From the NCBI GenBank assembly GCA_903844735.1, contig CAIMUX010000086.1:9074-73073 (forward strand): a DNA stretch of 64,000 bases. Direction: 5' to 3'. Both the position numbers and the translations under genes were made by a program. The notes under the pieces are model-generated. The model was not told where the DNA came from and did not search any database. It saw only the letters and a list, made by a program, of their open reading frames with translations. This document shows, in pieces, positions 1,549-64,000 of this stretch (position 1 is the stretch's first letter; each line of letters begins with the position of its first letter). The DNA comes from Candidatus Eiseniibacteriota bacterium (GTDB taxonomy: Bacteria; Eisenbacteria; RBG-16-71-46; CAIMUX01).

Positions 1549-1621
1549 CCCAAGACGCTGTCGCTTCCACCTCAAGAAGCGTTTCCATCGGGTCGATATC
1601 ACTCTTGAGGAGAATCCAAGG

Positions 1622-10291: not shown

Positions 10292-10540
10292 GCCACGGGT
10301 CGCCAATCCGGACGCCTTCCATCGTCGTCCTCTGGCATGGCCGTGGCGCTATCCGGCCGATCTTTTCCGTGTCATCCTCCGGTATCACTGAGCTTCGGAG
10401 CAGGGAACGAGTACGACCGGCGTCAGGCTTCGGGCCTTAGGCCTCGGGCCGGAGGGCGTCGAACAGTCTCTGGAAGCCGTGAGTCAGCTTGCCGTACCGG
10501 GCCACGAGCGCGGCGTGGTCCTCCGCGCTCACGGTCCGCC

Positions 10541-10570
10541 CTCCCGAAGCCCGAAGCCTCCGAATCTCAG
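10541..10570. repeat. Copy B of the CCGAA-rich / CTCCGAATCTCAG motif
   Basis: 'ctcccgaagcccgaagcctccgaatctcag' lies 45-120 nt upstream of the sensor kinase gene. Confidence 0.5.
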
Positions 10571-10614
10571 AGTGTCATGCCGAGCTTGCGGCTTTCCGCG
10601 GGTTCGGCTAAGAT

Positions 10615-12318
10615 TTGGCCGGCGCCAAGGAAGCGGTGCACCCGGGTGGTCCGGGCTGCGGTCATGGAAGGCCGACCGCTTTGGCGCAGATGGAACCCGC
10701 TATGGATGCCACGGAGCCTCGTCCTCGCCACGGGGAGGACGCCGTCGTATGCCCGGACCCGCTCGCGCGCGAGATCTTTGCGCGGATCCTTGGGACGGTC
10801 GCTGCCTGTCTCTATGCCCGCTTTCCCGACGGCTCCCTGCACCCGGTCCATGCCTCCGGCCTGGAACTCGAACCTCGTGGGGCCTGGACTCACGAACTGA
10901 AATCGGCCGCCCCCTGGGGGGCGGCGCCACCCGGCGCGGTGACGGCGCTGGCCGCGTTGCCGCGCCGCGCCGGCTTGCCTGATCCCGATTCGTCGCTGTG
11001 GCTGCGCCCCCTCCGTTGCGGCCGCGACATCGCCGGCGGATTGCTCCTGCGCGTCGCGGGACGAACCGTTCCCGCGGCCCTCCGCCGACGGCTCGATGAT
11101 CCGGTGCATCTGGGTACCCTGACCGCACTCATCGAGTGGAGTCGTGCCGGGATCGAGCTCGAAGCGCTCCGGGGCTTTCGCGAGGCCGTGTCCTCGGCGC
11201 TTCCGTACGGCGTGCTGGTCGTGGACGGGCTCGGTCGCGTCACATGGACTGGAGGCCGTGCCACCGCGATTCTCGGCGTGAGTGCGGAAGAGGCGGCGGG
11301 CAGCGACTGCGCGCGGATCTTCCGGCCGGTGGGCCTGGAGCTGCACCCGATCCTGGAAGGACTGCGCGGGAGGGTTCACTCCGGCGAGATCGTCCTGGCT
11401 CGTGCCGACGGTGAGGAACTGCCGGTTTCGCTGGAAATGGCGCGGCTGCCCGGGCGAGGCGGGCGTAGTCACGGGTTGGTGGTGCTCTTTGCGGATCTGT
11501 CGGAGGAGCGTGTCTTGGAGGAGACCGCGCGGCAGCGCGACCGCCTGGCCGCGCTCGGCGAATTGTCTGCCGGGGTGGCTCACGAGATCCGCAACCCTCT
11601 GACCGGAATCGCCAACTGCGCGCAAGTCCTGCGGGAAGGGATGGAAGAGGAGGACCCTCGCCATCGCTTTCTTCGCATCATCCTCGACGAGACGGCGCGA
11701 CTGAACCGCATCGTGGAGGGGCTTCTTTGCTACGCCCGGCCGAACCGTCCCGACCTGCGCGACACCGTCATGGAGGAGCTCGTGCGTCACGCCATCGACC
11801 TCGTGCGGTCCGGGCTGGAGGCAAACGGGATTCGCGTCGGCTACAAGCTGGGTGGGCGGATCCCGCGGATCTTCGTGGATCCCGCGCAGGTCGAGCAGGT
11901 GCTGCTCAACCTGCTGCGCAACGCCGAGGAGGCGATGCCCTCCGGAGGCGAAATCGTGGTTGCGATCTCGGTGGTGCGGCGGCGACCCCATCGGCGGCGC
12001 GGCCTGGGGCGGCGGGCCGATGACCGGATGCGGGTGCGACCGCGCGATGACGGCCCGCTGGTGCGATTCGTCTCGGTTCGCGTGGCCGACACCGGACCCG
12101 GCATCCCGCGCGAACTTCTCCCGCGGATCTTCAATCCTTTCTATAGCACGCGGAGCAAGGGAACCGGGCTGGGACTTTCCCTTTCGCAATCGATCGTGCG
12201 AGAGCACGGGGGATTCCTCACGGCCCGCTCGGTGGTAGGCAAAGGAACCGTCTTCCATCTGGATCTACCGGTGGAGAGGAGGCAAGGTGAGCGACGGCAG
12301 GACCAGCGACGCGCTTGA
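10615..12318 (+). CDS. Sensor histidine kinase (PAS/GAF-like N-terminus, HisKA, HATPase), FleS/FlrB/NtrB-type
   Basis: H-box 'LSAGVAHEIRNPLTGI', N-box 'LLNLLRNAEEAM', G-boxes 'VADTGPGIP...GTGLGLSLS'. The start is ambiguous (ATG 10690 is an alternative). Confidence 0.8.
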   Translation: MAGAKEAVHPGGPGCGHGRPTALAQMEPAMDATEPRPRHGEDAVVCPDPLAREIFARILGTVAACLYARFPDGSLHPVHASGLELEPRGAWTHELKSAAPWGAAPPGAVTALAALPRRAGLPDPDSSLWLRPLRCGRDIAGGLLLRVAGRTVPAALRRRLDDPVHLGTLTALIEWSRAGIELEALRGFREAVSSALPYGVLVVDGLGRVTWTGGRATAILGVSAEEAAGSDCARIFRPVGLELHPILEGLRGRVHSGEIVLARADGEELPVSLEMARLPGRGGRSHGLVVLFADLSEERVLEETARQRDRLAALGELSAGVAHEIRNPLTGIANCAQVLREGMEEEDPRHRFLRIILDETARLNRIVEGLLCYARPNRPDLRDTVMEELVRHAIDLVRSGLEANGIRVGYKLGGRIPRIFVDPAQVEQVLLNLLRNAEEAMPSGGEIVVAISVVRRRPHRRRGLGRRADDRMRVRPRDDGPLVRFVSVRVADTGPGIPRELLPRIFNPFYSTRSKGTGLGLSLSQSIVREHGGFLTARSVVGKGTVFHLDLPVERRQGERRQDQRRA

Positions 12319-13711
12319 GTACACGCTCATGGTGGTGGACGACGAAGAGTCGATCCGCATCACCCTGGGCGAGGCGCTGTCCAACGAGCGGACCACCGTG
12401 CATACGGCGGGGACCGGTGGCGGCGCCCTCGAAATTCTGGAGCGCGAGCCGGTCGATCTCGTCCTTCTCGATCAGAACTTGAAAGTGTCGGGGGAGAACG
12501 GCATCGAGGTTCTGCGCGAGATTCGGCGTCGTTTCCCCGACACACTGGTCATCATGATGACGGCGTACGGGCGGATCGAAGCAGCGGTGGAGGCGACCAA
12601 GCTGGGCTGCTTCCAGTACATCACCAAGCCACTGGAGATCCCCCAACTACGGCTGCTCATCAAGAGTGCCCTGGCCACCGTCGAGCTACGCAAGGAGGTC
12701 GAGGTCCTGCGCAGCCAGCAGGAACGTGAGTTTGACGGGGAGCGCATCTTCGGCAGCAGTGAGAAGATGAAGGACCTCCTCGATAACGTGAAGAAGATCG
12801 CCCGCAGCGGCACCTCGACCATTCTGATCCGCGGCGACACCGGCGTAGGAAAGGACCTTATCGCCCGGGTCATTCACCAGACCAGCTCCGCCGGCAAGGG
12901 GCCGTTCGTAGTGCTGAATTGCTCGGCGGTGCCGGATAATCTGCTGGAGAGCGAACTCTTCGGCCACGAGCAGGGGGCTTTCACCGATGCGCGTCGCCAC
13001 AAGCGCGGGCTGCTCGAGATGGCCGACCGCGGCACGCTGTTTCTCGACGAGATCGGGGAGATGCCGGCGGGGCTGCAGTCCAAGCTCCTGCGCGTCCTCG
13101 AAACCAAGACGTTCCGCCGACTGGGCTCCACCACCGACATCCGGGTCAATGTTCGCTTCATCGCCGCCACCAACAAGGATCTCTTCCAGGAGGTGGAGGC
13201 GCGCCGCTTTCGAGAGGATCTCTACTACCGCCTCTCGGTGATTCCGGTCTATGTACCGCCGCTGCGCGAGCGGCGCGAGGATATCGGACTCCTCGTGCGG
13301 TATTTCCTCGATCGCTACAACCTGGAGCTGGGGGGGCGCCTGGCCCGTGTGGCGGATACGGCGATGGAGATGCTGGCCGACTACCGCTGGCCGGGAAATG
13401 TCCGCGAATTGCGCAACGTGGTGGAGCGGCTGGTGCTCATGCACCCGGGGCCGGAGGTGCTGCCGGAGGATCTTCCGGAGCAGGTACGGCTGGGAACCGT
13501 CGCGCTCCGTCCGGATGAGGAGAGCGAGGAGGTCGTCATCCGCAGCGAACGGGTGGTTCCTCTGGCGGAACTGGAAAAGGCCGGTATTCGCGACGCCTTG
13601 GCCAAACTCCAAGGGAACAAGACCCGTGCGGCCGAGCTTCTCGGGATCAGCCGTCAGACGCTCCGCACGAAGGTGCGGGAGTACGGGATCGAGTCCATCG
13701 ATACGGAGTGA
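12287..13711 (+). CDS. Sigma-54-dependent response regulator (REC + AAA+ sigma-54 activator + Fis-type HTH), FleR/FlrC-like
   Basis: 'MVVDDEESIR' receiver, Walker A 'GDTGVGKDLIARVIH', GAFTGA 'GAFTDA', 'ESELFGHEQGAFTDA', C-terminal HTH 'LLGISRQTLRTKVREYGI'. GTG start overlaps the kinase stop. Confidence 0.85.
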   Translation: MSDGRTSDALEYTLMVVDDEESIRITLGEALSNERTTVHTAGTGGGALEILEREPVDLVLLDQNLKVSGENGIEVLREIRRRFPDTLVIMMTAYGRIEAAVEATKLGCFQYITKPLEIPQLRLLIKSALATVELRKEVEVLRSQQEREFDGERIFGSSEKMKDLLDNVKKIARSGTSTILIRGDTGVGKDLIARVIHQTSSAGKGPFVVLNCSAVPDNLLESELFGHEQGAFTDARRHKRGLLEMADRGTLFLDEIGEMPAGLQSKLLRVLETKTFRRLGSTTDIRVNVRFIAATNKDLFQEVEARRFREDLYYRLSVIPVYVPPLRERREDIGLLVRYFLDRYNLELGGRLARVADTAMEMLADYRWPGNVRELRNVVERLVLMHPGPEVLPEDLPEQVRLGTVALRPDEESEEVVIRSERVVPLAELEKAGIRDALAKLQGNKTRAAELLGISRQTLRTKVREYGIESIDTE

Positions 13712-13930: not shown

Positions 13931-14320
13931 ATGCGGAAGCTCGGCGGCCGCGTCGGCCGCTGGAGGTGCCACATGCTCTCGGTAGCCAGCTTTTTCCAGG
14001 GAACCGCTTCGGGTACCGCCCGGCCCGCCCGGCGAAGCCTCGCCGCGCGCGAGGAAGAGCGCCGCCGCCTCAGCGCGGCGATACAAGAGCTCTCCGAAAC
14101 TTCGCGCGTCGCCCTCGCCCTGCGGTACTTCGAGTCGGCCCGGCCCCGGCAGATCGCGATCGTGCTGGGTATTTCGGAGGAGCGGATAGAGGCGATCCTC
14201 GTGGACGCGGTTCGGAACGTGGCGGAGATTCTGCGCCGGCCGGAGGTCGTGACGCCGGCGGCGTCCGGTCCGCGACCGCGCGCGCGCCGGACCTCGGCTC
14301 GGAATGTAGGCCGGTCGTGA
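13931..14320 (+). CDS. Orphan sigma-70 region-4 (HTH) domain mini-protein with no region 2
   Basis: 'LSETSRVALALRYFESARPRQIAIVLGISEERIEAILVDAVRNVAEIL' matches sigma-70 region 4.2. All three upstream frames hit stops within 260 nt, so there is no room for region 2. 129 aa from ATG 13931. Confidence 0.4.
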   Translation: MRKLGGRVGRWRCHMLSVASFFQGTASGTARPARRSLAAREEERRRLSAAIQELSETSRVALALRYFESARPRQIAIVLGISEERIEAILVDAVRNVAEILRRPEVVTPAASGPRPRARRTSARNVGRS

Positions 14321-17636: not shown

Positions 17637-19101
17637 GCCGTGCGACGAAAGCACCGGCCGACCTATTGGGGGGAACGCCTCTCCATCCGAGACGCACGCC
17701 CCCTTATACGAAGGGCACGGCTCCCGCAAGCGGGGGGGCGCCGGGCGGGAAGGCCGTGGCACACGGATCTGCCTCGCCGGTGAGGCGTCAAACAAACGCC
17801 CGAACGGCGTGCGATTCGGGAGAACTCGACTCGCTGCGGCGCCTTCTCGAAGGGCGCGAGCAGCTTTGTCTCATCCTCGAGGAACTGCTGGAGGCGTCCA
17901 CGGACGGAGTGGTCGCGCTCGATTTCCGTGGGCGCGTGGTCCATGTCTCCGGGGCGCTTTTCGGTTGGGCTGCGGGCCGGGATGGTGCGGCGAATCCGCC
18001 GGGTCCGCGGGGCATAGCAACGGCGTCTCCGGATCAGTGCCTCCCTCGTTCGGTGCGCCAGCGGTTGCGCCGCGAGGCAGCGGGGATCGAGGCGGGCGAG
18101 ACGATTCGCTTCGAGCTCCCCTGGTCGCGCCCTGACCGCGGCACGGAACTCTATCGCGTCGTCGCCACCGCGGGCACCGATCTGGCAGGCAGTCCCGCTC
18201 TCGCGAGGCGCAGCCCCGCCGAGATAGGCCAGGGTCGCGCCGAAACAGGACGCGGTCCCGCCGAGACAGGACACGGCGGACGCCTCCTGACCCTTTTTGC
18301 GTTCTTCGACCGCACGCGCGAAGCGACGGTGGAGCGCGAGCTCGCCGAGGCGAGAAACTTGGCGGCCCTCGGGCAGATGGCGGCCACAGTGGCTCACGAA
18401 CTTCGCAACCCGCTTGGAGCCATTCAGGGATTTGCCGGCCTGTTGAGCCGCGACCTAGTCGGGCAGCCCGCCCTCTTGCGGCAGGCGGAGCGGATCCTTC
18501 GCGGGGTGGAAGGGGCCAACCGCATCGTAAGCGACCTGCTTGAGTATACGCATCCGGTGGCGCCGCGGCGGGAGTCGGTGTCGCTTTCGATTCTGCTGGC
18601 GGAAAGCATCGCAGCGTGGCGTGCTTCGACACCGTCGCCTGGCCGGACGGAGGTTGACCTGTGCGTCGACCCCGATCTTCCCGATTGTTTCTGCGACGCG
18701 CGGCTCGTGCAGCAGGCGCTGCAAAACCTCTACGCCAACGCGGTTCAGGCGATGGGCGAGGAAGGGGGCACGCTCTTCGTGCGGGCGCGGGCCGCGGGAC
18801 CCGCGGGACGGCCCGACCGGTTGCGCGTCGTGGTGCGCGATACCGGATGCGGACTGGGCGCCGACGAAGTAGCGCGGATCTTCCAACCTTTCTACACCAC
18901 GCGCCCCGGCGGAACCGGCCTGGGGTTACCGCTGGTGCGGCGCATCGTGGAAGCGCATGGCGGCCATGTCCACGTGGTGAGTGCGCCGGGTCGCGGGACT
19001 TCCGTGGTCATTGACCTGCCGGCGGCGAGCCTCGAGTTGCCGAGCGGCCGGGACGAACCCGGCGAGGAGGATGTCGCGGGGGTCTGGGAGGAGAGAGCGG
19101 T

Positions 19102-19105
<4 letters not shown>
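17633..19105 (+). CDS. Sensor histidine kinase (second, paralogous), cytoplasmic-type
   Basis: 'LAALGQMAATVAHELRNPLGAIQGFAGLL', 'LQNLYANAVQAM', 'VVRDTGCGLGADEVARIFQPFYTTRPGGTGLGLPLVRRIVEAHGG'. ATG 17633 overlaps the upstream stop (ATGA). Confidence 0.8.
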
Positions 19106-20535
<1,430 letters not shown>

Positions 20536-34164: not shown

Positions 34165-37100
34165 ATGAATCCGCTGCCGTCTACGTTGACGCCGGCCCTG
34201 CCGGGTGCGGCTGCCGATCCGGGACTGCGGGGACGATTCCCCGAGGCTCCCGACGGCGGCGGCGCGCGCGTCCAAGACCGGGACGGGTTCGAGGCTGCAC
34301 TGCAGGCGGCGAGCGTCGCCGGTTCGTTCGTTCTCACTCGCGGGCCCGCGTTGTTTTCGCGGGTGAAGCAAATGGAAGACACGCTGGAGACCGCGGCGCC
34401 GGCGACGGCAAGCAATGTCGAACCGAGGGCGTTTCTAGCGCCGATGGAGCCCCTTTCTTCTTTGGGTGCCCCGAGGACCCTTGGCTCGAGCGGAGCGCCC
34501 GGAGGTCCGGCGACCGGGACCGATGCCGAGGTCGTCGAGGTAGCGGGCGCTGCGACGGTATCTGGAACGGTCTCGGTGCCTCATGGCTCGTCGGGAGTGG
34601 CCGGGTCCTCATCCACTGTCTTGACCTCGCCGGCGGCATTGACCTCGCCCGCGGCATTGACCTCGCCGGCGGCATTGACCTCGCCCGCGGCATTGACCTC
34701 GCCCGCGGCATTGACCTCGCCCGCGGCATTGACCTCGCCGGCCGCCGTGCGCACGCCGCGCATCGCCGCCTCCACGGTCGGTGCGGCGGGTGCGCTCCCG
34801 ACGGCCCGGGGTGCGCGCGCGACCCGGGTCGTGGATGGCTCTCCCTCGGCAGGGAACGTCTCGAACGGCGAGCGGTTGGGCGACGTCGGGGGACGGATCA
34901 TCGAGGCCTCCGGACGTGTTGTCGGCCTCTTTGACCTGGAGGACGGCGGGGCGCTGCCGGCGGCTGGTTCGGTCCCCGCTGGTGTAGGCGCGGGAATCGC
35001 CACGCCGGGGGAGGCGACCTCCGGAGCTGTTCCGCGTGCCGCCGGCGTAGTGGCGGGCGCGAAGAGCGCCCCCGCCGGCGATGCGGTTGTGTCCATGGCT
35101 CCTGGATCCGGGATCGCTTCCAGTCCGTCGTCCGCGAGGGTGTCCGAAACGACGAGGTCCGGCGCGGCGATGACCTCTCTCTCCAGCTCGGCTTCCGGTT
35201 CCGCAGGAAGTCGGGCGATGCCGGTCTCCAACCCGGTCTTGGCTGTCGGCATGGTTGCCGGCCCTTCGGTGGAGGGTGCGCCACCAACCCCGGTGTCGGT
35301 CCCCGCTTCCGGTTCGAATGCGGGTCAGACGAGGGGTGGCGCTGCCAAGGGCGCGGCGCCGGTACCGGTTTCCCCATCGGGCTCGGTTAGTGATCAGACG
35401 ACAATCGGTCCTCTGCCGGTCTCCGCGCGCTCTGCCGCACGGGCTTCCACACTAGGTTCGGCTCTCGGGCAAATGACCAATGCCCCGATGACAGCCTCCG
35501 TGCCAGGACCCGCACCAACACCCCTACCGCCCTCCGCGACAGCCTTCGGACGCGCCGAGGAATCGGGCTCGACTGGCGGAGAGAGAGTGCGGAGTGCGAC
35601 GACAGCCCCGGTAGCGGTTGCGATGCCGGTATCGACCTGCACGTCGACTCCTGAACCGTTGGTGAGTGGCCCGGGGCCGGGCGCCGCGCCGGTTTCCGCG
35701 CCGGGCTCTGCGCCGGGCTCTGCGCCGTGCTCCGCGTCGGTCTCAGCGCCGCTCCCCGCGCCGGTCTCCGTACCGGTTTCCCAGCCGATCTCTGTGCCGG
35801 CCTCCGCGCCGGTTCCCGTATCAGGCTCAACTCCTGATCAGACAGCCCGGAGTGCGGCGCCGGCCTTGGCCTTCGACTCGGCTGCCGGTCAAATGATCAG
35901 CGGCCCGATCCCGGTCTCTGTGCCGGCCTCGGCGCCGATCCGCTCGCCGGTTTCCGCGTCGGTCTCAGCGCCGGTCCCCGCGCCGGCGTCCAGGTCGGTC
36001 TCCGCGCCGATCTCCGTACCGATCTCCGTACCGGTCTCCGTACCGGTTTCCCAGCCGATCTCTGTGCCGGCCTCCGCGCCAGTTTCCGTATCAGGCTCAA
36101 CTCCTGATCAGACAGCCCGGAGTGCGGCGCCGGCCTTGGCGTTCGACTCGGCTGCCGGTCAAATGATCAGCGGCCCGATCCCGGTCTCTGTGCCGGCCTC
36201 GGCGCCGATCCGCTCGCCGGTTTCCGCGTCGGTCTCCGCGCCGGTCCCCGCGCCGGCTTCCAGGTCGGTCTCCGCGCCGGTCTTCGTACCGGTTTCCCAT
36301 CCGATCTCTGTGCCTGCCTCCGCGTCAGTTCCCGTATCAGGCTCAACTCCTGATCAGACAGCCCGGAGTGCGGCGCCGGCCTTGGCGTTCGACTCGGCTG
36401 CCGGTCAACGAATCAGCGGTCCGATGCCGGTCTCTGTGCCATCCTCCGCGCCGATCCCCTCGCCGATCCCCGGGCCGGCTTTCGCTTCGGTCTCAGTGCC
36501 GATCCCTGCGCCGATCCCCGCGCCAGTCTCCCAGCCGATCTCTGTGCCGGCCTCTGCGCCAGTCCCCATATCAGACTCAACTTTTGATCAGACAGTCCGG
36601 AGTGCGGCGCCGGTCTTGGCATTCGAACCTGCTCCCGGTCAGTTGGCCGGCGACCCGATGCCGGTTTCCGTGCCGGCCTCTGCGGCGGTCTCCTTGCCGG
36701 TCTTGGCAGGGATTCCCACGCGAACTTCCGTGCTAGCCTCGGCATCGATCCCCGCGCGGTCTTCCTTGTCAGCCTCGGTGCCGACTTCCTTGCCGGATTC
36801 CACGCCGAGTTCGGTGGCGGCCTCCGCACCGAACTCACGATTGGTTCCCCCATCCGGCTCGGCTCCTGCTCAGACGGTGCAGAGCGTGGCGCCGACTCCG
36901 GTGTCGACTTCGATACCGGCCTCTGCGTCCGATTCGATTTCTGTTCCGATGACGGGCGGCCCGCTGCCGGTGTCCGCGACGGCCTCTCCACCGGCTTCCG
37001 CCTCGGTTTTCGCGCCGGCCTTCGCGTCGTCCGCCGCGCCGACTTCCGTGCCGAACCCGGTGTCGATTTCATCGCGATCTTCGGTGGCGCACTCAACTCC

Positions 37101-38463
37101 TGATCAGACAACGTCGAGTGCGACGATAGCCCCGGCGGCCGTTTCGGTTCCGATTTCGGCGTCAGGCTCGATTCCCGCGCAGATGACGGGCATCGGGACT
37201 CCGGTCTCCGTGCCGGTCTCCGTGCCGATCACAGCGCCAAGTGCGGTTCCCGGTCAGACAGTGGAGAGTTCGGCGAAGGTTCCGGTGGCTGTTTCGATGC
37301 CTGCGTCCAAGGTAACTCGCGGGCACACTGCGCGAAGTGCTGTGACGGCCCCGGCCGTCGGCGCGACGCCGGCCCCCGCGTACGGTTCGGGCCCCGATCT
37401 GTTGACGAGCGGCCCGATGCAGGCAGCTGGACCGGTCTTCGCGCCGTCCGCCGTGCCGGCATCCGTCCGGGCCTCCGTGCCGGCCCCTGAGCCGTTTTCT
37501 GCGCCGGCCGCCGAGGTCAAAGCGGTGTTCGCGCAGGGTGGGTCCGGTACAGGGAGCGCGCCGGCCGAAGCAACAGGCCCAGGCGTGACGCTGAGCCGTG
37601 GCGAACGCCCAGCGAGTCTGCCCACCGCGATTAACGTGGCTCGGACAGTGCGGTCTTCCCAAGCTTCTGTCGGGACCAGCGAGGCGACCCCTGTGTCCGA
37701 GAACCCCCTGTTCCCGAACCCGATGCCTCAGGTCCGTGCCGAAGTCTCCTCGGTGGGGGAACCCAGCGCCGGCGGTGCATCTTTGACCCCGGGCTCTTCG
37801 GCGATAGCCGCGGCAGTGCATCTACCGGCGATTCAGACCTCCACGCCGAGCGCGTCGACGGCTCCTCTGGGGCGAGTGCTCGAGTTGGCCAACCCGGTTG
37901 CGCCCCCGAATCTACCGACGGCTGTGCCCCACGCCATCAAGCTCGCCCTGCGCGAGGGGGTCGGCGAGGTGCGGATCCGCCTCTGGCCACCGGAGCTGGG
38001 TGGCATCCTGGTTCGGCTGCGGGTCAACGGGACCGAGGTCACCGCGCGGATCGAGGCCGAGCGGACGGACGTGCGGGGAATGCTTGAGTCGATGCGATCG
38101 GACCTCGGGCGGGGGATGCAGGAGGCCGGGCTGAAACTGACGCGATTCGAGATCGGTCCGGCACGCCCGAACGAATCATTGCGGGCCTTGGAGACAGTGA
38201 TCCCGGCGAGCGCGGCCTCGCAGGGCGGTGGGGGCGGGACCCCGGATCGCCAGGGTCAAGGCGCCCCGGCGGGAAATCTCGGGACGTCCGGCGGCTTCAA
38301 TCAGGGCGATCCCGGCCCACGCGGCGAGCACGCCGCCGGCGGACGCGCCGGAAGCGGGCGGGAAGGAACGGGCCTAGCGCCCGAGAATCGTAGGGAGAGA
38401 AGCGAGGCGGGCCTTGTGGTTCGCCATGTGCGCGGCGAAGCGGCGATTGACGCCTGGGCCTGA
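34165..38463 (+). CDS. fliK: Giant hook-length control protein FliK (1432 aa) with expanded repetitive Pro/Ala/Ser/Val-rich ruler region
   Basis: C-terminal '[66 protein letters not shown]' is the Flg_hook / FliK C-terminal domain. It lies between ylxF-like and flgD as in Bacillus. The central roughly 1000 aa is low-complexity tandem repeat. Confidence 0.75.
34621..34746 (+). repeat. 18-nt perfect microsatellite x7 inside fliK encoding (ALTSPA)7
   Basis: 'ttgacctcgccggcggca / ttgacctcgcccgcggca' alternate seven times. The encoded peptide is '[18 protein letters not shown]...'. Confidence 0.85.
35771..36700 (+). repeat. Tandem array of ~240-270-nt near-identical repeats (about 3.5 copies) inside fliK; more diverged copies extend from ~35390 to ~37240
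   Basis: Units begin at 35771, 36041, 36287 and ~36527 ('taccggtttcccagccgatctctgtgccggcctccgcgcc...'). Encoded unit is '...[78 protein letters not shown]...'. Confidence 0.8.
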
Positions 38464-45119: not shown

Positions 45120-45893
45120 ATGATGCCGCTGCCGTCGCCGGACCGGATCGAGACCTTTCTGCTGGTCTTTGTTCGCTGCCTCACCTTCTGGTCGATCGGC
45201 CCCCTGCTGGCCGATCGGAAGGTGCCGGTGCAGGTAAAAGTCCTGGGCGGGCTGGTCACGGCGATTGCGGTCTTCTCCTCGGTCGACACAACGCGCTGGA
45301 TCAAGACCGACTCGCTCCTCGTGCTGGCCTCGCTGGTGGCGCGAGAGGTCCTCATGGGCGCCGCCCTCGGGCTGGTGGCTTCGCTGGTCTTCCTTGCTGT
45401 GCGCATGGCGGGGAGTCTTCTCGGCGTGCAGATGGGCTTCTCCATCGCCAGCGTGATGGACCCGCAGACCCAGACCGAGATGTCGCTCCTGTCGGAGGTC
45501 CAAGAACTGCTGGCGGTGTTCCTCTTCCTCCTGGTGGACGGGCACCACCGGCTCTTTCAGGCCTTGGCGGTTTCTTTAGACCGAGTCCCCCCGGGGGCCA
45601 TCGGCGACCCCGGGATCCTCGTGGGGGCTCTGGTTCCGCTGATCGGGGCGATGTTCGGAATGATCATCCAGGTCGGGGCGCCGATCCTGGGCGCCATGTT
45701 TCTGACCGATGCCGCCTTGGGATTTGTCGCCCGGGCGGTTCCCCAAATGAACGTCTTCATCGTGGGGATCCCGGTCAAGATCGCGGCCGGAATGGCGTTA
45801 CTTGTTGTCACGGCGCCGCTCTTCTCTCGTCTGCTCCTCGTCCAGTTCAGCCGGATGGACCAGCAACTGCTCACTGTCTTGCGTGCCATGTAG
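45120..45893 (+). CDS. fliR: Flagellar export apparatus protein FliR
   Basis: 257-aa polytopic protein 'MMPLPSPDRIETFLLVFVRCLTFWSIGPLL...GAPILGAMFLTDAALGFVARAVPQMNVFIVGIPVKIAAGMALLVVTAP'. Confidence 0.85.
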   Translation: MMPLPSPDRIETFLLVFVRCLTFWSIGPLLADRKVPVQVKVLGGLVTAIAVFSSVDTTRWIKTDSLLVLASLVAREVLMGAALGLVASLVFLAVRMAGSLLGVQMGFSIASVMDPQTQTEMSLLSEVQELLAVFLFLLVDGHHRLFQALAVSLDRVPPGAIGDPGILVGALVPLIGAMFGMIIQVGAPILGAMFLTDAALGFVARAVPQMNVFIVGIPVKIAAGMALLVVTAPLFSRLLLVQFSRMDQQLLTVLRAM

Positions 45894-46180
45894 GTTATGG
45901 ATCGACTTCTGTTGACCGAGACCCACGGGCGGGCCCGACGGCAGCTTCCGGGACCGGTCTCCGTTGCTCATCGACCGGAGTTCGGCGGTCTCGACGCCCG
46001 TGCGGGCGGTGGTGACGTCGGGCGCGACCTACGACCCGTGTTGGCGGGATAGAACGACCAGCGAGAACTGGGTCTTCGTCACGGCGGATCGAATAGGTCG
46101 TCGAAGGTGCCGCGCATTCCCTTGCTGGTCGGCCTGTTGCGGGTAATCGGCCAACAGGAATCGATACATAGCCTGCTTCG

Positions 46181-50084: not shown

Positions 50085-50345
50085 CCTATCGTCGAAGCAA
50101 GGTTCGGGATGATGATCCAGGTCAGACCCCGATCCCGGGCGCCATGTTTCTGACCGATGCCGCCTTGGGATTTGTCGCCCGGGCAATCTCCCAGATGGAC
50201 GTGCTTATCGTGGGGATCCCTGTGCAGACCGCGGCTGGAATGACCTAACTCGTTGTCACGGATCAACGTGCCTCCAGTCTCGTCCCGCTCCGGTTCGGCC
50301 GAATGGCCCAGCAACGGCTTACCGTTTTGCGTGGCATGTAGGTTG
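50085..50345 (+). pseudogene. Diverged duplicate of the fliR 3' end (~260 bp, ~80% identity to 45637-45897) with premature TAA; remnant flanking the insertion
   Basis: Direct alignment: 'gcgccatgtttctgaccgatgccgccttgggatttgtcgcccgggc' is identical in both copies. Both copies end '...ttgcgtg[c/g]catgtaggtt'. Copy 2 reads '...PIPGAMFLTDAALGFVARAISQMDVLIVGIPVQTAAGMT*', in frame with the FliR C-terminus. Confidence 0.6.
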
Positions 50346-63200: not shown

Positions 63201-63243
63201 CGGGGCCGAGTCTGGAGACAGCAGACAGTAGACAAAAGTCAGG

Positions 63244-63320
63244 ATTCGGAAGCCCTTTGTCCGAAGCCTCAAGCCCGAAACCTGAAGCCAGTCGTATTCG
63301 CTCCCTGCTCCGAATCTCAG
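63244..63320. repeat. Copy C of the CCGAA-rich / CTCCGAATCTCAG motif
   Basis: 'ggattcggaagccctttgtccgaagcctcaagcccgaaacctgaagcc...gctccgaatctcag' lies about 145 nt upstream of ATG 63465. Confidence 0.5.
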
Positions 63321-63464
63321 GACAGGAGAATCCGGTTGCAATTCCCGGGCCGCCTTCCTACCTTCGCGCACAGGCGACCGGTCTTCGGCCGCCGGCCGGG
63401 ATGCGGGATGCGTCCCGGCCCCGGTCATGGGGCCGGAGGGCGGAAGGACAGGAGGCCTGAGGGA

Positions 63465-64000
63465 ATGTCCCTGACGCAGACCGCGCGGGAGCGCCGAGAT
63501 CGGCTTGTGTCGACGTCGCCCTTGACCCCCGCGTCTGTCAGCTCCCGGAGGCGCTTTCCCCGCCGGCAACAGGCGCTTCTGGCCCTGGCGGATGCCGGTC
63601 TGGCGGAGGCGTTCTTCCTCGTGGCATGGCAGCTTGCCGGCAGTGTCGGGGTACGCGTCGGGGTACAGGTCGGGGTCAATCCCATCGGAGGCCCAGTCCC
63701 CTGGCTCCTGGCGGTGTTGTTCCCCCTGATCGTAGCCAGCCGAGGACTCTACCGTCTGGGCCGCTTTCCCTCCTGGCGGGGGCAGGCGAAGGCCGGTTTG
63801 CGAGCCGTCGCCTGGTCGGCGGGTCTCAGCGTTGCGGCGCTCTTTCTCTTTGCCCGCGAGATCCCCTTCGCGCTGCGCCTCGTGCTCGTCTCCTACCACG
63901 CCATGCTGGCGGTTTGGATGGTGGTGTTGCGGCCGCTGCTCGCGGTGCTGTTGCGGCGACGGTACGTCTCGCGCGACGGCGGGCGGGAGCGGGTTCTCAT
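63465..64000 (+). CDS. 5'-partial gene: polyprenyl-phosphate sugar transferase-like (WbaP/EPS glycosylphosphotransferase) N-terminal membrane region; runs off the window
   Basis: Open frame from ATG 63465 to the window end, with no stop. Several hydrophobic segments 'LALADAGLAEAFFLVAWQLA', 'PWLLAVLFPLIVA', 'VAWSAGLSVAALFLFA', 'LVLVSYHAMLAVWMVVL' followed by 'RRYVSRDGGRERVL', like the N-terminus of bacterial sugar transferases before the 'RVLIVG' motif. Confidence 0.4.
   Translation, partial: MSLTQTARERRDRLVSTSPLTPASVSSRRRFPRRQQALLALADAGLAEAFFLVAWQLAGSVGVRVGVQVGVNPIGGPVPWLLAVLFPLIVASRGLYRLGRFPSWRGQAKAGLRAVAWSAGLSVAALFLFAREIPFALRLVLVSYHAMLAVWMVVLRPLLAVLLRRRYVSRDGGRERVL

Follow-up and report, generated by a model that had tools for sequence, protein, structure and literature searches.

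Why should the same 13 nucleotides stand in front of three unrelated genes? The question arises from 64,000 nucleotides of a genome assigned to Candidatus Eiseniibacteriota (in the following the window, with a GC content of about 67%). An earlier note, made from the letters alone, had pointed to the exact 13-mer CTCCGAATCTCAG at positions 1536-1548, 10558-10570 and 63308-63320. All three copies are confirmed, and they lie on the plus strand only. We find that each 13-mer forms the right end of a larger bracketed unit (the three units are here called E1, E2 and E3), and that the motif very probably belongs to a family of small non-autonomous transposable elements resembling MITEs (miniature inverted-repeat transposable elements). 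Most members of this family end at nearly the same distance from a promoter-like sequence of their host.

The 13-mers are ends of bracketed units

A chance origin of the three copies had been judged unlikely, and rightly so. In 100 shuffles of the window which preserved the dinucleotide composition the mean count was 0.00 and the maximum 0. The CCCGAA(G)-type units described in front of the 13-mers are real as well, since Tandem Repeats Finder (TRF) reports tracts of period 7 at 1511-1534 and 10543-10558 and a tract of period 14 at 63261-63289. Together with a further tract at 10426-10450 these are the heptamer or period-14 tracts of the CCCGAAG type detected by TRF in the window, and they occur solely beside the motifs. 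A search of the literature did not find the 13-mer in relevant publications.

What the earlier note had missed are the inverted partners. With a mismatch-tolerant search we detect CTGTGATTCGGAG at 1266-1278 and CTGAGCTTCGGAG at 10388-10400, and a degenerate partner, GTCAGGATTCGGAAG, is present at 63238-63252 upstream of the third 13-mer. In addition, the 60-nt arm at 63261-63320 recurs in inverted orientation at 10388-10447 with 85% identity. The bracketed units of the window and their borders are as follows.

E1: 1266-1548, 283 bp, no strand given; intergenic, with the SLT-domain gene before it and the flgN-like gene after it
E1 ends: left CTGTGATTCGGAGTAGT at 1266-1282; right ...CACTCCGAATCTCAG with the 13-mer at 1536-1548; subterminal heptamer tract at 1511-1534
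E2: 10388-10570, 183 bp, no strand given; in the spacer between the PilZ and kinase genes (10541-10570, the stretch singled out by the earlier note, is its right arm)
E2 ends: left CTGAGCTTCGGAGCAGGG with the partner of the 13-mer at 10388-10400; right 13-mer at 10558-10570; heptamer tracts at 10426-10450 and 10543-10558
E2 target-site duplication, left copy: 10381-10387, GGTATCA, assigned from the empty sites in relatives and the flank-length test
E2 target-site duplication, right copy: 10571-10577, AGTGTCA, 5/7 identical to the left copy
E3: about 63238-63320, 83 bp, between the gene of a GAF/HisKA/receiver hybrid kinase and the Bac_transf sugar transferase gene; right arm 63261-63320
E3 candidate 7-bp duplication: GACAAAA at 63231-63237 and GACAGGA at 63321-63327

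The 13-mer is the outer core of a terminal inverted repeat of about 17 bp, CTGAGATTCGGAG[T/C]AGG, which is the consensus end of the MITE-like family. E1 and E2 carry one mismatch each, in one of their two ends. In the predicted fold of E1 the termini pair (z = -3.45). Six-frame translations of E1 and E2 contain nothing suggestive of a transposase remnant, and nhmmer searches with single arms and with the family profile detect no diverged extra copies in the window or in the loci of relatives.

Two side observations concern these borders and the motif itself. Another heptamer tract, AGACAGC repeated 2.7 times at 63216-63234, adjoins the presumed left border of E3. The 13-mer also recurs within a conserved coding stretch of many phyla (L022, L032, L040, L054 and L080) and is there a source of false positives for motif searches; this stretch, translated LSESQERML, we take to be purL-like.

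Further copies and their distribution

A strain with 99.3% identity provides a contig (L121) which extends the window by about 3.4 kb, and a fourth copy, E4, is located about 3.3 kb past the end of the window. Window and extension, about 67 kb of a single organism, together hold four copies. The short-read contigs (Logan) of this strain start at window position 1292 in E1 and end at 10567 in E2 (L106), and others end inside E4 (L121/L122/L126). Breaks of this kind inside E1, E2 and E4 are what a dispersed repeat should cause, and the repeat fragments short-read assemblies of this organism. Copies are also found in other genomes.

E4: L124 1466-1644, 179 bp, a complete copy
E5: L127 4958-5122, 165 bp, in a related genome between a Fer4_5 gene and an asparaginase gene
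L024 element: 187 bp, in a metagenome-assembled genome (MAG) labelled Myxococcales (JAKAPL01)
L063 element: 186 bp, in the same Myxococcales-labelled MAG as L024, 83% identical to the L024 element
L077 element: 175 bp, in a MAG labelled Desulfurellales (JBBITY01)
L110 element: 187 bp, on a metagenome contig of 43% GC (Ga0207010); the ends, CTGAGATTCGGAGTAGGTAC, are perfect over 20 bp, and the subterminal repeats are CCGCAGAG

The elements of L024, L063 and L077 were obtained by a loose scan of genome contigs for GAAGC-N0-30-13-mer. About 100 of the 105 loci returned are chance matches, and these three, perhaps together with L067 and L039, are the useful ones. The L110 element is the single locus returned by a scan of metagenomes which demanded both ends at a distance of 140-170 nt. 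The 17 terminal nucleotides are identical in L077, L024, L063 and L110; between the groups just the terminal 17-23 nt are shared and the interiors are unrelated. Within the group of E2 the similarity extends further. E4, E5 and the L077 element are full-length homologues of E2, and a profile of E2, E4 and E5 matches the L077 element from end to end (E = 1.3e-6). Between the right arm of E1 and the left arm of the L077 element the identity is 81% over 42 nt.

A common anatomy emerges from these copies. The typical copy measures 165-187 bp, and the window also has copies of 283 bp and 83 bp. Each has two inverted ends, subterminal heptamers of the CCCGAAG/CTTCGGG type on both arms, which are able to pair, and a variable core. 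The L110 element folds as a near-perfect hairpin of 187 nt (z = -12), and four members of the family have as their consensus fold a long hairpin with imperfect pairing.

A scan of viral sequences with the 17-mer gave no match. When plasmids were searched by BLAST with E2 and with the L110 element no matching ends were found, and the short matches obtained concern the subterminal tracts alone. They fall into unannotated plasmid stretches of Streptomyces (GGCTTCGGGCC-type; H38-H40, Streptomyces clavuligerus) and of cyanobacteria (CCGCAGAG-type; H14/H21, Anabaena and Sphaerospermopsis). Short repeats like the subterminal tracts may be used by other elements.

Empty sites and target-site duplication

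We retrieved syntenic loci of relatives through their FliD homologues, which are 87, 74, 72 and 56% identical (L111/L112, L114, L113 and L116, respectively). For the site of E3 three relatives with 86, 83 and 73% kinase identity were used (L117-L119). Conservation in relatives had been proposed as a check on the motif, and the outcome is negative: even with up to two mismatches the 13-mer is found in none of the relatives' loci examined.

The site of E2 is the most instructive. The PilZ-kinase spacers of L111-L114 match the window position by position on both sides and lack exactly E2 plus one 7-mer. The window reads ...tcctcc GGTATCA, then E2, then AGTGTCA tgccgagcTTGCGG..., and the relatives read ...tcttcc ACTGCCG caccgggcTTGCGG..., or have GAAGTCG or GAGATCG instead of ACTGCCG. 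E2 is an insertion of 183 bp with a 7-bp target-site duplication. At the site of E3 the arm and the motif are missing in L117-L119, and the sequence directly downstream of E3 is kept. The sole locus comparable to the site of E4, in L118, has no element either. At the site of E1 the relatives carry unrelated filler with CCCAAGCC-type repeats, and L113 has only a short spacer of 119 bp. The insertions of the element in front of several unrelated genes are recent.

We note that the spacers equivalent to that of E1 in L111 (4380-4648) and L114 (1377-1640) contain about 130-150 nt which are unlike E1 and end in short repeats of the CCCAAGCC/CCCGAG type. These repeats sit where the right arm of E1 would be. 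The filler could be an older decayed insertion or could mark a hot spot of insertion.

The length of the duplication was analyzed by comparing the 2-12 bases to the left and to the right of seven elements, with mismatched pairs as the control. The length of 7 alone stands out with 26/49 matches against 0.26 in the control (p = 4.5e-5), and no other flank length from 2 to 12 reaches p<0.03. The duplication is perfect in L024 (7/7, ACCGAGC on both sides) and reaches 5/7 in E2 and in E3, for which the left boundary was chosen with the duplication in view. E5, which was found after the test, also has 5/7 (CTAGCAC and CCAACAC). In E4 we count 1/7 at the nominal boundary and 6/7 after the right boundary is shifted by 1 nt.

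A probable family of MITE-like elements

The features commonly used to recognize a MITE can now be put together. With 83-283 bp the elements stay below about 600 bp and have no transposase gene, their sole open reading frame (ORF) comprising 31 codons. Their terminal inverted repeats measure 13-20 bp, the duplication has the fixed length of 7 bp, E2 has an empty homologous site, and multiple copies are dispersed. The elements are small, do not convincingly code for a protein, end in inverted repeats, have a duplication of fixed length and a precise empty site, and occur in multiple copies and across unrelated genomes. Taken together, these features characterize a MITE-like non-autonomous transposon, and the conservative classification is a new MITE family. 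Four readings had been offered for the motif by the earlier note. The dispersed small repeat has stood, as a MITE which has inverted repeats at its termini and duplicates the target site, and not as a repetitive extragenic palindromic (REP) sequence; operator, alternative sigma factor and conserved 5′-untranslated structure have not.

We suggest that a transposase encoded elsewhere would bind the ends and integrate the element via a staggered cut of 7 bp. A cut of this kind points to a DDE-type transposase acting in trans.

Could the copies instead be palindromes of the REP/REPIN type, which are mobilised by a RAYT (HUH/Y1) transposase and not by a DDE enzyme? REP sequences and REPINs are not known to leave a target duplication, and they have a conserved GTAG head and palindromic units of 20-40 nt. 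As in REPINs, the copies are intergenic inverted pairs which form hairpins, and no transposase was found. The 7-bp target duplication, however, is present. Also, a GTAG/CTAC head is missing, the ends start with CTGAG, a single arm is not self-palindromic, and elements of 165-187 bp with a unique core are of another build. A RAYT gene was not seen in the window or in the loci examined. We consider a REP/REPIN nature of the family very unlikely.

The element ends are in register with promoter-like sequences

The earlier note had associated the motif with gene starts, and this association proves to be well founded and more precise than proposed, as the element ends lie 15-16 nt 5′ of promoter-like -35/-10 pairs, far above chance. 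In six of the nine elements a sigma-70-like -35/-10 pair begins at this distance past an element end, a distance made up of the duplication (7 nt) and another 8-9 nt. Past the end which faces the gene, E2, E3, E4, E5 and L024 show the same order of 7 nt, 8-9 nt, a -35-like hexamer, 17-18 nt and TANNNT. The candidate promoters are:

E2 flank: TTGCGG 10586-10591, N17, TAAGAT 10609-10614, plus strand; 15 nt after E2, PAS/HisKA kinase gene, the best pair in the flank
E3 flank: TTGCAA 63336-63341, N17, TACCTT 63359-63364, plus strand; 15 nt after E3, Bac_transf gene
E4 flank: TTGACC, N18, TAGCGT
E5 flank: TTCCCC, N17, TACGAT
L024 flank: TTGACC, N18, TAGTCT

The pattern TT[GC]NNN-N16-18-TANNNT is seen at offset 15 or 16 in these five cases against 0.013 expected (background of 3.7e-4 per position in the same sequences, 18 ends x 2 offsets = 36 trials). 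When a generic weighted -35/-10 score is used, the best pair within 70 nt falls on offset 15-16 for 7/18 ends (p = 3.7e-7, with 2/70 per end). One of these seven pairs is low-scoring, and the left flank of L110 (TTGCCA-N17-TATCTA) is among them. The right flank of L110 has TTGCAT-N17-TATATA at offset 16, and this element lies between divergent genes. As a side observation, the flanks of L110 (10615-10870) are roughly symmetric, with GGCAAT, a T-rich stretch and 7 nt before the element and 7 nt, an A-rich stretch and ATTGCA behind it, so that a -35-like hexamer lies 16 nt from both ends.

The promoter-like blocks at the sites of E2, E3 and E4 are already present and conserved in relatives without the element. 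The -10 hexamer at the E2 site keeps T1, A2 and T6 across TAAGAT, TACTAT and TAGGAT. To judge from these alignments, the blocks are native to the host and not brought by the element. E2 and E4/E5 differ in the way in which the interior of the element is turned towards the promoter, so that either element end can face it.

Insertion is not random, as most copies end 15-16 nt upstream of a pre-existing -35-like hexamer. As to the cause, integration would be directed to about -44 to -50, and the element would come to lie at about -51 and further upstream. The enzyme might read the -35 region itself or a protein bound there, for example the RNA polymerase holoenzyme. From selection alone a register of single-nucleotide precision would not be expected. 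In full, the proposal is that of a MITE family in very different bacteria whose transposase would keep a fixed register to the -35 hexamer of sigma-70-type promoters (the duplication of 7 bp and a further 8-9 bp upstream of it) by reading promoter architecture or promoter-bound RNA polymerase; we put it forward tentatively, as a possibility that falls somewhat short of an even chance. Promoter-registered placement would explain why the motif is seen upstream of three unrelated genes. The tempting interpretation as a regulon motif is explained away already by a plain MITE, and the three genes are not co-regulated through the 13-mer. If the proposal is true, each insertion would bring to about -51 to -90 a protein-binding end of 17 bp together with a hairpin of heptamer repeats, and these could rewire regulation.

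Several observations weigh against our account and have to be set beside it. The duplication is weak or absent in E1, L077, L063 and L110 (1-3/7), and E3 (5/7) and E4 (6/7) need a boundary adjustment of 1 nt. The left end of E3 is degenerate (GTCAGGATTCGGAAG) with an uncertain left boundary, and its predicted fold leaves the termini unpaired. A clean empty site is available for E2 only, as the upstream sequence of the relatives is not alignable at the sites of E1, E3 and E4. No autonomous element and no transposase with these ends occurs in the 64-kb window or the loci examined, and we infer the mobilisation in trans. Concerning the register, E1 has TTCCAC (TTGCAC in relatives) at offset 16, position 1565-1570, and no -10 hexamer follows; L063 and L077 do not fit the geometry. 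A strict consensus scan for promoters and terminators calls none of the blocks in the three spacers, and for this reason the promoter assignments are based on their conservation and on a softer home-made score. Finally, the analysis covers nine elements, we tested the offset only after having noticed it, and the promoters were assigned by alignment and score.

Unlikely readings: an operator or a sigma factor motif

The fixed position in front of promoters also invites a regulatory interpretation, and the earlier note had seen a shared cis-element here, with an operator for a common regulator among its readings. The 13-mer would then be an operator or activator site for a common transcription factor, with the heptamers as auxiliary sites. 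The ends are found at about -51 to -67 from the inferred start sites, a range in which class I activators work; they keep a constant distance from the -35 hexamer, and the promoter-proximal 13-mer is an exact copy in E1-E3. The same promoters in relatives (72-87% FliD identity for E1/E2, 73-86% kinase identity for E3), however, lack the motif and are themselves conserved; in the homologous spacers it is the blocks just downstream that are kept. Since the relatives' promoters of the same genes do without the motif, a conserved operator or sigma element of these genes is ruled out. Moreover, every copy terminates an inverted-repeat element which has a target duplication, the same ends stand next to unrelated genes in an organism of 43% GC, and in E4 it is the mismatched end that faces the promoter. 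In our view an operator is very unlikely.

The idea that the motif is a -10 or -35 element of an alternative sigma factor, sigma-28, had been suggested by the resemblance of CCGAAT to CCGATA and by the copy within the flagellar cluster upstream of flgN, and it can practically be dismissed: the remaining copies stand before genes of other kinds (PAS kinase, sugar transferase, likely valS homologue), the 13-mer is conserved at no homologous site, and a -35/-10 pair of the type TAAA-N15-GCCGATAA is absent at the 13-mer and has its sole match in the window at the following site.

Sigma-28-like promoter of the flgN-flgK operon: 1572-1598, plus strand, TCAA-N16-GTCGATA, 23 nt downstream of E1 and outside the element

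This far better match is the single one in the window against 0.155 expected, and it is conserved in four relatives lacking the 13-mer.

The small open reading frame

Three copies of the MITE-like element contain an ORF, and it has to be considered whether the element carries a payload.

ORF in E2: 10437-10532, minus strand, 31 codons, VSAEDHAALVARYGKLTHGFQRLFDALRPEA, preceded by GGGAGGG

E2, E4 and E5 share GGGAGGG, a distance of 6-7 nt, an ATG or GTG and 31 codons. The consensus of the translated product is MSAEDHAELVARYGELIxGLQRLLDALRPEA. The peptides of E2 and E4 are found in the public protein collection as hypothetical protein, and an exhaustive protein search gave three more relatives of the 31-aa peptide.

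One could imagine a mobile micro-gene with a Shine-Dalgarno-like GGGAGGG or a structured RNA cassette in which a hairpin sequesters the Shine-Dalgarno sequence. In line with a micro-gene, the ORF and its Shine-Dalgarno-like sequence at 6-7 nt occur in E2, E4 and E5 and in two further database peptides, 15/31 positions are invariant, and the variable ones have a roughly helical spacing. In line with an RNA cassette, the arm with the Shine-Dalgarno sequence is complementary to the 3′ end of the ORF. The pairwise dN/dS of 0.56-1.17, however, speaks against a functional protein. P0145 no longer has the start codon, the stop is missing from both P0143 and P0145, the L077 element lacks the ORF while being homologous over its full length, and E1, E3, L024 and L110 have no ORF either. 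The conserved C-terminal codons repeat the opposite arm in inverted form, and for this reason their synonymous sites are conserved too. There is no match to Pfam or Rfam for either variant. A payload of this kind is hardly to be expected, and the ORF is probably not a functional gene and merely a by-product of open GC-rich sequence.

For the window as a whole Rfam gives 0 matches at the gathering score. Weak sub-threshold matches at E2 are to radC and c-di-AMP models, and those at L110 are to generic long-hairpin (microRNA-precursor) models, likewise sub-threshold.

Gene context and other features of the window

The 13-mer of E1 ends at 1548, 73 nt before the ATG of the FlgN-like gene at 1622 (plus strand). 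From the end of the second 13-mer at 10570 it is 131 nt to the kinase ATG at 10702, which is the start in public gene calls, and 44 nt to the TTG at 10615. The third 13-mer, ending at 63320, precedes the ATG of the Bac_transf gene at 63465 by 144 nt. E4 is followed by the likely valS homologue, and the corresponding gene in the relative L118 is a valyl-tRNA synthetase. On public contigs with the same proteins the order of the flagellar cluster is SLT, FlgN-like, FlgK, FlgL, FliW, CsrA, flagellin, FliS and FliD, and public gene calls place a PilZ protein, a PAS/HisKA kinase and a sigma-54 activator downstream of it.

Four further features of the window were recorded.

34571-37507: nested tandem repeats with an 18-nt unit x8 (34571-34768), a 12-nt unit x51 from 35664 and, as far as about 37450, higher-order units of 234-270 nt x4-8; the GC skew and the AT skew run in the opposite sense here, and presumably the minus strand carries a very repetitive coding region
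12122-13440 and 18873-20273: paralogous pairs of histidine kinase and sigma-54 activator with direct repeats D11, D12 and D15 of 73-79% identity; in public gene calls HisKA/HATPase is followed by Response_reg-Sigma54_activat-HTH_8, twice in succession
45681-45896 and 50129-50344: direct repeat of 216 nt (D6), 80% identical, the copies 4.4 kb apart
13973-14320: protein of 115 aa with little beyond a sigma-70 region 4 domain, located after a sigma-54 activator; the position is kept in most relatives

Comparison with known systems

With REP sequences, bacterial interspersed mosaic elements (BIMEs) and REPINs the family shares the dispersed intergenic inverted pairs which form hairpins; it differs from them by the 7-bp duplication and by a 17-bp end which is not palindromic.

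A parent element could be sought in the IS4 family. Within this family, the direct repeats of the ISPepr1 subgroup measure 7-8 bp, and its end consensus is YT-AA-YTT---A (De Palmenaer et al. 2008, PMC2266710). The duplication of 7 bp falls into this range, the ends of both start with 5′-CT, and CTGAGATTCGGAG agrees with the consensus at 5/8 specified positions and differs at 3/8. The AT-rich target preference of ISPepr1 is only partly matched at the elements, and no transposase linked to these ends was seen whose DDE/YREK residues could be compared. The first 50 kb of the Pelobacter propionicus plasmid pPRO1 contain no IS4-type transposase. We take the ISPepr1 subgroup as a lead only.

Bacterial MITEs are well known, for example Correia/NEMIS in Neisseria, ERIC/IRU in enterobacteria and RUP in the pneumococcus; the target duplication of Correia is TA. 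The elements resemble them in being 80-280 bp long, non-coding, intergenic and multicopy, in having terminal inverted repeats and hairpins, in their presence/absence polymorphism and in their location next to promoters. They differ by the ends CTGAGATTCGGAGYAGG, the 7-bp duplication and the subterminal heptamers on the arms, by the conservation of the ends across genomes of 43-72% GC, and by the fixed register of 15-16 nt between the element end and a pre-existing -35 hexamer. Our literature searches returned neither a promoter-registered MITE nor a bacterial MITE with a 7-bp duplication, and we know of no described bacterial MITE with a fixed register to the -35 hexamer.

A plain MITE would be an ordinary addition to a well-known class. 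The fixed register in unrelated genomes is not ordinary. If the targeting is true, the family would represent a transposition system which recognizes bacterial promoters at nucleotide resolution. This would bear on how mobile elements spare their hosts, on how promoters gain new upstream sequences and on tools for tagging or perturbing promoters. The family also marks candidate promoters in uncultured lineages such as the Eisenbacteria, where none have been mapped.

To our knowledge no bacterial counterpart with a nucleotide-level register to the -35 hexamer exists, and a likeness is offered by eukaryotes, in which Ty3 and Ty1 integrate at Pol III genes and mPing and P elements near the 5′ ends of genes. 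There, too, integration occurs at a defined position relative to the binding site of the transcription machinery and spares the coding sequence. The enzymes and hosts are wholly different, and the analogy is one in working and not in membership.

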